Below, one piece after another: positions 56,267 through 58,164 of a stretch of DNA of 64,000 nt. Positions within the stretch are counted from its first letter, which is position 1, and each line of letters begins with the position of its first letter. The position numbers were made by a program, and so were the translations under genes. The notes under the pieces are model-generated. The model was not told the origin of the DNA and ran no database searches. It worked only from the letters and a program-made list of their open reading frames with translations. The stretch comes from an uncultured Chloroflexia bacterium (GTDB taxonomy: Bacteria; Chloroflexota; Limnocylindria; Limnocylindrales; CSP1-4). The stretch is from contig CAWFXA010000002.1 of the NCBI GenBank assembly GCA_963819655.1, positions 928,001 to 992,000 of the forward strand. Reading direction: 5' to 3'.

Positions 56267-56433
56267 CGCGACGGCTCCCTCGAGGGGTGACGGGATCAGG
56301 TGTTGGACGGCCCTCTTCGATGGATTGTCCGATCCTCCGCACGGCGAGTCCAGTACTTTCGTCCCATCCCGGTGCCTCCGGACACCAGGCACGTAGTCGT
56401 CCGGAAGCCCTGGTTCCCGGGTAGACTCCGAGC

Positions 56434-57729
56434 GTGCCAGCGCCGGGCGAGACCGTGGTCGTTGTCGTCGCGATCGGGCTCGCCATCCTGTTATCTGTCC
56501 TGTTGTCCGTGCGCGTCCTGACCGCCGTCCCTGGCTGGGTCCGTCGGGCCCGCACGCCCGAGACGCGCGCGCTCCGCGTCATCGGTGTCGGTGGCGGCGG
56601 CAGCAACGCGGTCGATCGGATGGTCCAGGCGCGGATCCAGGCGGTCAGTTTCGTGAGCTGCAATACGGATGCCCAGGCTCTGCGTCGCTCGAGCGCGAAG
56701 ACGAAGCTCCGGATCGGTGACTCGATCACGGGCGGCCTCGGTTCTGGCGGAGACCCGGAGATCGGGCGTCGGGCTGCCGAGGAGGACCACGATAGGATCG
56801 CTCGCGCCGTTCACGGCGCAGACCTTGTCTTCGTCACCGCCGGTCTTGGCGGTGGAACGGGATCCGGCGCCGCGCCGATCGTCGCTGCCAGCGCCAGGGA
56901 TCAAGGCGCCCTGACGATCGCGGTCGTGACCAAGCCATTCGGTTTCGAGGGATCGCAACGGAAGCGCGTCGCCGACACCGCGGCGGCCGAGCTTGCCGCG
57001 AATGTCGACGTCCTGATCGTCGTGCCGAACGATCGTGTCGGCGACGTTCTCGCCGAGGACGCCACCATGGTCGATGCGTTCCGAGTCGTCGACGACGTCC
57101 TGCTGCAGACTGTCCAGGGGATCATCGACCTGATCGCCGCGCAGGGGTTGATCAATCTCGACTTCGCCGATATCCGGTCCGTGATGAAGGACGCCGGTCC
57201 TGCGGTCATCGGCCTGGGTCGTGGCAGCGGCGAGCACCGTGCGATCGACGCGGCTCGTCAGGCGATCGCCAGCCCGCTTCTCGAAGCGAACATCGATGGC
57301 GCTCGCGGGATCCTGTTCAATATCTCCGGCCCGGCCGACCTCGGATTGCGCGAGGTCCGGCTGGCGGCCGACGAGATCCGCGGGCGCGCCGATGCCGACG
57401 CGAACGTCATCTTCGGGACGACCTTCAGCGAATTGCTCGGCGAGGACGTTCTCATCACCCTGATCGCGACTGGGCTGAACGGGCAGGATCGGACCCAGAA
57501 GCCGGCGGTGGAGGCTTCCTCGAACGGTGGCCATCCTCCGGTAGCCGGGGAGGTGCGGCCGCCGAGGCGTTCGGCGCGGACGGTCAAGGAGGCGTCCCCT
57601 GTGGATGCGCCTGCGTCGCCGGTCGAGGCTTCCGATCAGGCACCACAGCCATCGCCGACTCCGGATGACGATGACACCGAGGTGCCGAGTTTCCTGCGCC
57701 GGACGGGGCAACCTCCTGGCGTCACGTGA
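56434..57729 (+). CDS. ftsZ: FtsZ with an N-terminal hydrophobic (TM) extension
   Basis: VIGVGGGGSNAVDRM, NTDAQAL, GLGSGGDP, AGLGGGTGSG, TKPF.FEG, PND, T7 loop LINLDFAD, N.IFG, LIATG, and the C-terminal peptide EVPSFLR. Confidence 0.95.
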   Translation: MPAPGETVVVVVAIGLAILLSVLLSVRVLTAVPGWVRRARTPETRALRVIGVGGGGSNAVDRMVQARIQAVSFVSCNTDAQALRRSSAKTKLRIGDSITGGLGSGGDPEIGRRAAEEDHDRIARAVHGADLVFVTAGLGGGTGSGAAPIVAASARDQGALTIAVVTKPFGFEGSQRKRVADTAAAELAANVDVLIVVPNDRVGDVLAEDATMVDAFRVVDDVLLQTVQGIIDLIAAQGLINLDFADIRSVMKDAGPAVIGLGRGSGEHRAIDAARQAIASPLLEANIDGARGILFNISGPADLGLREVRLAADEIRGRADADANVIFGTTFSELLGEDVLITLIATGLNGQDRTQKPAVEASSNGGHPPVAGEVRPPRRSARTVKEASPVDAPASPVEASDQAPQPSPTPDDDDTEVPSFLRRTGQPPGVT

Positions 57730-57882
57730 GTCCCGGCCCGGTACGCGAACAGACGGCGTCGGCCAATCGTGGATCGGCGGTCGGTTCGTCGGTCGTGGGC
57801 ATTTGACCTGGCGCGGACAATTGAGGTCACCGCGGTCCCGCGCCGCATGACCCCGATCTCGTGGCGCGCCAAGGAGAGCCTG

Positions 57883-58164
57883 ATGCAGGCACCGAGCCCG
57901 TTCCCGGCCAGCGTCCTACGGCCTCCGTCCCCCTCGGCGCGCTGCACCTGCAAACATTGGGTCTATTGCGATTGCACGTGTCACGGCCGGTACTGCGATC
58001 CGTCCGAGAACATGTGCGACCTCGCCTTCCTGCCCGACGACGGCGGCCTCGCCTATTGGGGCTGCGCGGGTTGCACACCCGGTGAGGGGGCGCTGCACTA
58101 TCTCGGATGCGAGCTGATCGGCTGGAACGTGCCACTCGGAGGCACCCCGGAAACCCCGCAGTAA
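57883..58164 (+). CDS. small Cys-rich protein
   Basis: AAGGAG RBS; 93 aa with 10 Cys and 3 His. Confidence 0.7.
   Translation: MQAPSPFPASVLRPPSPSARCTCKHWVYCDCTCHGRYCDPSENMCDLAFLPDDGGLAYWGCAGCTPGEGALHYLGCELIGWNVPLGGTPETPQ

Follow-up and report, generated by a model that had tools for sequence, protein, structure and literature searches.

The stretch of DNA analysed here (hereafter the window) consists of 64,000 nt from the genome of a soil Chloroflexota bacterium of the class Limnocylindria (genome G000; 3.49 Mb in 3 contigs, 91% complete). At 56434..57729 on its forward strand lies a GTG-initiated gene, recognised from the open reading frame list, Pfam and TIGR00065, that encodes a 431-residue paralogue of the cell division protein FtsZ. 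Textbook FtsZ is a soluble protein that reaches the membrane only via adaptors gripping its C-terminal peptide. The window protein shares the functional parts of canonical FtsZ but begins with a hydrophobic segment of its own, which is predicted to anchor it in the membrane as a transmembrane FtsZ (TM-FtsZ). A first-pass annotation made from the sequence alone had presented it as a solitary, self-anchoring FtsZ.

The window gene and its product

Residues 1-46 of the window protein read M/V-PAPGE, TVVVVVAIGLAILLSVLLSV, R-VLTAVPGW and VRRARTPETRA, after which the first strand of the core begins with LRVIGVGGGG. This region consists of a short acidic tail (residues 1-6, M/V-PAPGE; 56434..56451, +), placed outside the cytoplasm on the basis of the charge in homologues; a predicted membrane span (residues 7-35; 56452..56538, +), derived from Kyte-Doolittle values and AlphaFold2 and composed of a hydrophobic helix (TVVVVVAIGLAILLSVLLSV, residues 7-26), an embedded Arg27 and an interfacial VLTAVPGW; and a basic juxtamembrane linker that opens with VRRAR (VRRARTPETRA, residues 36-46; 56539..56571, +), delimited by charge, conservation and the predicted local distance difference test (pLDDT) score. 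Within this linker, R40 and R45 are nearly invariant among family members. All 49 of the 49 solved FtsZ sequences that match at E <=1e-40 align to the window protein from residue 43-48 onward and none reaches residues 1-42, so that some 45-46 N-terminal residues are extra, in agreement with the first-pass annotation, which had counted about 45 ahead of the GTPase core. Its description of a hydrophobic segment followed by the basic RVL...WVRRAR also holds. Averaged over 19 residues, Kyte-Doolittle hydropathy peaks at 3.11 (residues 8-26); the rest of the protein does not exceed 1.56, nor the canonical paralogue of the same genome 1.21. An AlphaFold2 model built on 20 family members (mean pLDDT 76.4) places a helix at residues 4-31, a disordered or low-confidence stretch at 33-41 (pLDDT <50) and the first core strand at 47-52, with a confidently modelled core, leaving a basic linker of about 11-15 residues between the helix and the core.

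The extension is a conserved property of the family. A 19-residue segment with a Kyte-Doolittle mean of at least 1.8 precedes the G-box in 118 of the 120 best database homologues (64-91% identity), and the two homologues in which it is missing, P0037 and P0116, are gene calls shortened at the N terminus. The motif [15-16 hydrophobic]-R-[IL]L..VPGW recurs among the homologues, with Arg27 conserved. The window protein has 50 residues before the G-box, whereas 95 of the 120 homologues have 45 or 46; comparison of the sequence with homologues reveals a tandem 12-nt duplication (56488..56511, +) encoding LLSV-LLSV at residues 19-26, which lengthens the window helix by 4 residues relative to close homologues. 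Between the members of the closest orthologue pair, the ratio of nonsynonymous to synonymous substitution rates (dN/dS) in the extension is 0.21 (6 synonymous and 3 nonsynonymous changes). The charges around the helix are distributed in the same way in all 118 helix-bearing homologues: the 10 residues before the hydrophobic window have a mean net charge of -0.9 that never rises above 0, and the 20 residues after it carry a mean charge of +4.3 that is at least +3. Judged from sequence, such charges follow the positive-inside rule for an anchor of N-out/C-in orientation, and a secretion signal would show them the other way round. The basic n-region of a Sec-type signal is absent, since the residues preceding the helix are MPAPGE and their charge is <=0 in each of the 118 homologues. 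The helix is therefore predicted, in the orientation that the first-pass annotation had proposed with the core in the cytoplasm, to insert into the membrane probably with its N terminus outside.

Behind this extension the protein is that of an ordinary FtsZ. It scores 371.3 bits on NCBIfam TIGR00065 (cut-off 295.2; residues 44-359) and matches the solved FtsZ 4m8i at E 5.7e-103. The Tubulin/FtsZ GTPase domain (PF00091, 150.7 bits, E 7.4e-44) covers residues 48-205 (56575..57048, +) and the FtsZ C-terminal domain FtsZ_C (PF12327, 98 bits, E 4e-28) residues 255-348 (57196..57477, +). The G-box GVGGGGSN (51-58) and GGGTGSG (139-145) are both invariant in 20 family members. Between the two domains, the T7 synergy loop NLDFADIR (residues 241-248; 57154..57177, +) aligns to NLDFADV of a solved FtsZ; its residues N241, D243, F244, A245, D246 and R248 are invariant in 20 TM-FtsZs, D243 and D246 being the catalytic aspartates. 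The poorly conserved C-terminal linker (residues 349-413; 57478..57672, +) is disordered, with pLDDT 30-41 from residue 351, and AlphaFold2 leaves the whole of residues 351-431 in this state. Near the end of the protein, the sequence reads DTEVPSFLRR (residues 414-423; 57673..57702, +), the conserved C-terminal peptide, of which a similar motif is present in 111 of the 120 homologues. The GTP-binding loop, the T7 loop and the C-terminal EVPSFLR are thus all in place, as had been noted at first, and the window protein is probably, to judge from these motifs, a complete, catalytically competent and polymerising FtsZ.

Whether the helix is made depends on where translation starts. The GTG at 56434 is the first possible start codon past an in-frame stop, only 3 open codons lying upstream of it. 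Further in-frame starts exist at codons 8, 24 and 26 only (TTG24 and GTG26 among them), all of them within the helix, and no in-frame ATG, GTG or TTG occurs between codons 27 and 62; a start just before the core, the alternative that the first-pass annotation had considered, has no codon to use. The internal start codons are not kept in relatives, and locus L117 has none between codons 1 and 56. Upstream of the GTG and ending 6 nt before it, the sequence contains TAGACT (56422..56427, +), a -10-like hexamer of the form TANNNT that is proposed to be the promoter of a leaderless mRNA. The first-pass annotation had pointed to this hexamer, and the suggestion is strengthened by its recurrence: TAGACT or TAGCGT stands at the same distance from the start in 8 of the 9 TM-FtsZ genes read (the window gene and those of L004, L115, L116, L117, L118, L119 and L122), the annotated start of L120 being the one that has no hexamer. 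Across G000, TANNNT with its first base at -12 precedes 110 of 2138 long open reading frames, compared with about 5 at neighbouring background positions, which indicates a clear class of probably leaderless genes into which the window ftsZ fits. Counted over starting positions -15 to -12, TANNNT is found in 208 long frames in all, and a Shine-Dalgarno-like peak is present too. A scan for E. coli-type -35/-10 promoters and terminators returned 0 sites. The ftsZ mRNA is thus probably leaderless and translated from the GTG, in which case the helix would always be made. A search of RNA libraries (15 runs, shares 0.04-0.10) yielded, in four runs, only short contigs of relatives, which show neither strand nor 5' ends and may include carried-over DNA; contigs of a close relative span the helix-to-core junction (56488-56714).

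The gene is accompanied by an extracytoplasmic function (ECF)-type sigma factor, a YCII protein, unannotated small proteins and a SulP transporter, and no ftsA, ftsQ, sepF or mur gene lies near it. A cysteine-rich open reading frame of 131 residues (57769-58164, +) follows on the same strand 40 nt past the ftsZ stop; it matches nothing in Pfam, and relatives have no counterpart of it next to their TM-FtsZ genes. When 18 window proteins were compared with 9 related loci by tblastn, FtsZ alone was matched, and Pfam scans of 31 neighbours in six loci returned unrelated genes. The TM-FtsZ gene always lies outside division and cell wall (dcw) clusters.

Paralogues, distribution and ancestry

The description of the window FtsZ as solitary is right for its neighbourhood but not for the genome, in which three ftsZ genes are found. 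The canonical one (P0002), a dcw-linked copy for which the first-pass annotation had proposed a search, is located on contig C3 in the order ftsW-murG-murB-ddl-ftsQ-ftsA-ftsZ, followed by a pyridoxal phosphate (PLP)-binding ylmE-like gene and yggT. Its product, which is 56% identical to the window FtsZ, contains no hydrophobic segment and ends in DLEIPSFLRRK. The third ftsZ lies between clpX and valS (G000:C3:251888-253087(-), equivalent to L004:8871-10124(-)) and encodes a protein of 417 residues, 61% identical to the window protein and laid out in the same manner, with a short acidic tail, a helix, IPGLFRRGRHPETR, the core and a terminal ELPTFLRK. Its branch lies deeper than that of the window copy, and no orthologue of it exists in the two closest complete relatives, G059 and G089. 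With a canonical copy elsewhere and a conserved extension, the proposal of a second, self-anchoring FtsZ paralogue gains support, and by sequence the genome would possess two of them; the roles suggested for it at first, in membrane remodelling, alternative division or modulation of the main Z-ring, are conjectural. SepF (PF04472) was not found in the 91%-complete G000 by a search that did find it in 7 of 14 control genomes, which leaves FtsA as the only classical tether detected. At L005:7360-8688(-), downstream of the canonical ftsZ, a frame of 442 codons matches both Ala_racemase_N (ylmE-like) and DUF167 (yggU), and a separate YGGT gene occupies another frame within this span; rather than a true fusion, the long frame probably represents read-through of two genes at high GC content.

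Helix-bearing FtsZs are uncommon even within the class. Among 121 Limnocylindria genomes, sorted into families f1 (36 genomes), f2 (5), f3 (39), f4 (40) and f5 (1), FtsZ is present in all 96 that are at least 90% complete, and a helix-bearing form occurs in 9 of the 121: 4/36 in f1 (G000 with two copies, G059, G089 and G113), 5/40 in f4 (G012, G024, G099, G117 and G108), 0/5 in f2, 0/39 in f3 and 0/1 in f5. Three genomes of the same genus without a helix-bearing FtsZ are fragmented (90-190 contigs), so that its absence from them is not firm. The second ftsZ copies of G119, G025, G010 and G064 encode no helix. One close homologue is labelled 'Candidatus Limnocylindrales bacterium' and related loci are labelled Chloroflexota.

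With a profile of 20 family members run against 301 Chloroflexota genomes, matches starting at position 1-2 were found, among the matches listed, only within the class (G000 twice, G012 and G024), 311 further and weaker matches lying outside those listed; eight other Chloroflexota candidates, matched from profile positions 23-34, have no helix. Many Chloroflexota families outside the class have 2-3 ftsZ matches per genome, and the eight copies examined carry N-terminal extensions that contain no hydrophobic helix. In a scan of 185,579 species genomes of many phyla, ordinary FtsZs dominated the matches, and among 80 loci taken from it a true TM-FtsZ was encountered only in L006, a Chloroflexota metagenome-assembled genome. 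Nine genomes flagged unpublished are counted in these tallies, all of them negatives. From the 105 FtsZ frames in L006-L114 (the 80 scan loci and 29 class loci) 5 passed the hydrophobicity filter; one that passed, L106, is a spurious upstream frame and was discarded. When a library of representatives clustered at 50% identity was searched, the N-terminal hydrophobicity filter passed 10 of the 150 best hits, and the helix of P0134, which fell outside the automatic filter because its G-box was missed by the search pattern, was seen by eye. With P0134 included, these proteins rank 1, 3, 4, 5, 8, 10, 12, 14, 23 and 31. In public databases the family is annotated as "cell division protein FtsZ", which hides its difference from ordinary FtsZ.

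Two further subtypes of TM-FtsZ, which start with MDWLTQYWPYL and MDFLANDL, have no C-terminal peptide and end instead in basic tails or in long low-complexity tails. Peptide-less proteins are encoded at L118, L119, L121 and L122 (genus g21) and L120 (g26) and include P0127, P0136, P0145 and P0153; members of the MDWLTQ type are known from metagenome contigs only.

The ancestry of the family was reconstructed by maximum likelihood (IQ-TREE, LG+C20) from 59 rows of the FtsZ core only, taken from 8 residues before the G-box so that the helix columns were excluded. This set corresponds to a quick tree of 92 rows minus 35 long-branch or redundant representatives, plus two YggT fusions; the tree was rooted on Bacillota, Acidobacteriota and Pseudomonadota rows, and support is given as ultrafast bootstrap/Shimodaira-Hasegawa-like approximate likelihood ratio test (SH-aLRT). 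The 22 single-helix FtsZs form one clade (100/97), with the window FtsZ inside a subclade of 9 rows (99/92). The branch that joins them to their sister group, made up of three YggT-FtsZ fusions, is supported at 84/95 and is not starred. The single-helix clade and the fusions fall together among the canonical FtsZs of family f1 in a group of 33 rows (100/99), and that group is itself embedded in the FtsZs of the class (37 rows, 100/98). This nesting implies that the anchored form arose from a duplicate of an ordinary FtsZ inside Limnocylindria. That f4 genomes contain it as well means either that it was transferred later or that an older duplication was followed by losses, two histories that the tree cannot separate. 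The single-helix clade sits on long branches, which points to faster evolution than that of the canonical copy.

The sister fusions raise the question of where the helix came from. They form four 90%-identity metagenome clusters (P0130, P0278, P0279 and P0280; 486-519 residues) in which a complete two-helix YGGT domain runs straight into the FtsZ core. This domain reaches 32.5 bits in Pfam (cut-off 27) and 57-64 bits on a hidden Markov model (HMM) of 22 YggT proteins of the class, and the fusion junction runs from a helix through a basic stretch to R.IRVVGVGGGG, as in the single-helix FtsZs. A yggT gene sits in the division cluster of G000 itself. The window protein gave no PF02325 match at E up to 1, and its N terminus scored 4.4 bits (E 53) on the class YggT HMM. 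The N terminus of the second TM-FtsZ paralogue shows a marginal match to YggT helix 1 (16.2 bits, E 0.011 among 24,640 sequences), and the reverse search, with an HMM of 38 N-terminal residues, retrieved the two TM-FtsZs of G000 alone and no YggT. These matches do not show the single helix to be a trimmed YggT domain, and such a descent is no more than a possibility. P0124, a metagenome protein considered as a long relative, proved to be an 840-residue tandem of two complete FtsZs that ends in IPEFLRRR and has no membrane helix.

Membrane attachment and possible roles

The reading of these observations that we favour, to which a probability of roughly 0.55 may be assigned, is that the window protein is a bitopic, self-tethered and polymerising FtsZ that is accessory to the main Z ring. 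The six-residue N-terminal tail would lie outside the cell, a single helix would span the membrane, and the basic linker of about 11-15 residues would lead to the FtsZ core in the cytoplasm. Each subunit would in this way be fixed to the membrane via its N-terminal side with no need of an adaptor, and attachment on the side opposite the C-terminal linker would keep its core at most a few nanometres from the inner face. Since the C-terminal peptide is kept, the window copy would probably also dock on FtsA and other peptide-binding partners, and it would most likely join or nucleate the Z ring as a built-in tether. The canonical, FtsA-tethered FtsZ is retained by the cell in its dcw cluster, with TM-FtsZ as an accessory paralogue. 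Several elements of this scheme are predictions, namely that the protein inserts into the membrane, the topology that it adopts there, its polymerisation and its assembly together with the main FtsZ.

Several known systems help to place the protein. With canonical FtsZ (P0002 and the solved 4m8i and 2vam) it shares the GTPase domain, FtsZ_C, the T7 loop, the linker and the docking peptide; unlike canonical FtsZ, it has about 46 extra N-terminal residues with a helix, is encoded outside the dcw cluster and belongs to a separate, faster-evolving clade. The behaviour of FtsZ attached at this end has been studied with engineered proteins. E. coli FtsZ with an N-terminal membrane-targeting sequence (mts) binds membranes, forms dynamic rings and treadmills (PMC5979038), and transfer of the membrane tag from the C-terminal to the N-terminal end of FtsZ changes liposome deformation from concave to convex and reverses the chirality and rotation of the rings (PMC5979038; PMC9111741). 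The construct concerned, mts-H-FtsZ-YFP with the mts of MinD at its N terminus, has in common with the window protein attachment on the N-terminal side, a short spacer and independence from adaptors (PMC5979038, PMC9111741). The window FtsZ differs from mts-H-FtsZ-YFP in being natural, in having a predicted integral helix and in retaining its C-terminal peptide. In the Osawa and Erickson construct the tag is reportedly a peripheral amphipathic helix, and the C-terminal peptide of FtsZ itself is said to have been replaced. By analogy, the window FtsZ would be the closest natural thing to the N-terminally tagged construct.

A second comparison is offered by ZipA of E. coli, which, in the topology given in PMC5979038, likewise has a short external N terminus, one helix and a cytoplasmic part that holds FtsZ. 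ZipA differs in being a separate protein that binds the C-terminal peptide of FtsZ via a long linker, whereas the window helix is fused directly to FtsZ; the likeness is one of predicted topology and job, and no sequence relation is claimed. The YggT-FtsZ fusions, sister to the single-helix clade and with the same junction, carry a whole YGGT domain, unlike the window protein. Makarova and Koonin (2010; PMC2875224) mention one divergent FtsZ-like protein of Crenarchaeota that has helices at its N terminus. Membership of the window protein in the FtsZl-1 or FtsZl-2 groups, divergent members of the tubulin superfamily that stand outside FtsZ proper and are encoded in vWA or other operons (PMC2875224), was ruled out by its pass on TIGR00065, its nesting among canonical FtsZs and the absence of such an operon. 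Full-text literature searches, in which most subscription journals are not covered, returned no natural bacterial FtsZ with an N-terminal membrane helix, and in the texts they reached Limnocylindria and FtsZ occur together only where FtsZ serves as a marker HMM. By these searches, an N-terminally anchored FtsZ appears to be undescribed in print.

A number of points weigh against the favoured reading. Anchoring, localisation and role are all predictions. In the more distant orthologue pairs, dN/dS of the extension is 0.5-1.1, which means that only its hydrophobic character, and not its sequence, is clearly constrained. The patchy occurrence (9/121 class genomes) makes TM-FtsZ dispensable, and no neighbour is conserved, hence the genomic context offers no functional clue. 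The loss of the C-terminal peptide in some subfamilies implies that FtsA docking cannot be a mechanism of the whole family. Tethering through the N terminus bends membranes in the direction opposite to C-terminal tethering in vitro (PMC5979038), and this is a poor fit with a simple helper role in constriction. With respect to the transcript, an RNA-library contig of a relative (56306-56517) crosses the proposed transcription start, which, if it derives from RNA and not from carried-over DNA, argues against a strictly leaderless mRNA.

Some of these points would suit a filament that is separate from the Z ring and shapes the membrane with inverted curvature, pushing it outward or wrapping around inward tubules, possibly for budding, vesicle formation, changes of cell shape or stress-induced alternative division. 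The switch of the tag from the C to the N terminus, which gives convex liposomes and reversed chirality (PMC5979038; PMC9111741), is what such a filament would lead one to expect, and the long branches and faster evolution relative to the canonical copy, the several subfamilies without the FtsA-docking peptide and the constant location of the gene outside dcw clusters are all in line with it. However, the subfamily of the window protein keeps the docking peptide (111/120), which would be difficult to account for in a protein that had no contact with the division machinery, and no partner genes are conserved around TM-FtsZ; a separate filament is accordingly an unlikely, if serious, competitor. 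It is this persistence of the peptide, together with the presence of FtsA in the cell, that places the Z-ring tether first, the inverted filament second and a regulator third.

As a regulator, the membrane-fixed subunits would cap, poison or sequester canonical filaments and so delay or position division, for example under starvation. Mixed contacts with canonical FtsZ (56% identity) are plausible because the longitudinal interface motifs are conserved, and an accessory, patchy gene with its own proposed promoter away from the dcw cluster would be in keeping with it. Yet all catalytic residues, including those of the T7 loop, are invariant, although their loss would be expected of a cap or poison, and the maintenance of two TM paralogues in one genome also speaks against regulation, making this role improbable. 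The least credible idea of all is that the extension results from misannotation or is an export signal removed by cleavage, with an ordinary soluble FtsZ as the mature protein. In its favour, GTG starts are often miscalled in high-GC genomes, and TTG24 and GTG26 are in frame. Translation from either of these two codons would, however, retain VRVLTAVPGW and the basic linker, and relatives do not keep such internal starts (L117 has none). Moreover, 118 of 120 homologues preserve frame, start position and helix, the helix is preceded by acidic residues, contrary to a Sec signal peptide, and a GTPase that needs cytoplasmic GTP would be useless outside the cell.

A bolder version of the separate filament is that TM-FtsZ is a natural 'inside-out' FtsZ, making the membrane curve away from the cytoplasm or wrapping inward tubules, and perhaps derived from a yggT fusion trimmed to one helix. 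With its N-terminal face as the anchor, such an FtsZ would turn towards the membrane the side opposite to the usual one. The idea is doubtful; if true, the cell would own a second FtsZ machine of inverted curvature, acting either in concert with the FtsA-tethered ring or in opposition to it.

How FtsZ exerts force has long been argued over, the points at issue being the face that the filament presents to the membrane and the direction in which it bends. To our knowledge, these points have so far been tested only with engineered tags. A conserved natural FtsZ with an N-terminal helix would represent evolution's own version of the tag-swap experiment, and the existence of forms with and without the C-terminal peptide, alongside a normal FtsZ in one cell, provides material for liposome and localisation assays. 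If the predicted anchoring is correct, the TM-FtsZs of Limnocylindria would indicate that new ways of attachment can be acquired by FtsZ paralogues inside one bacterial class.

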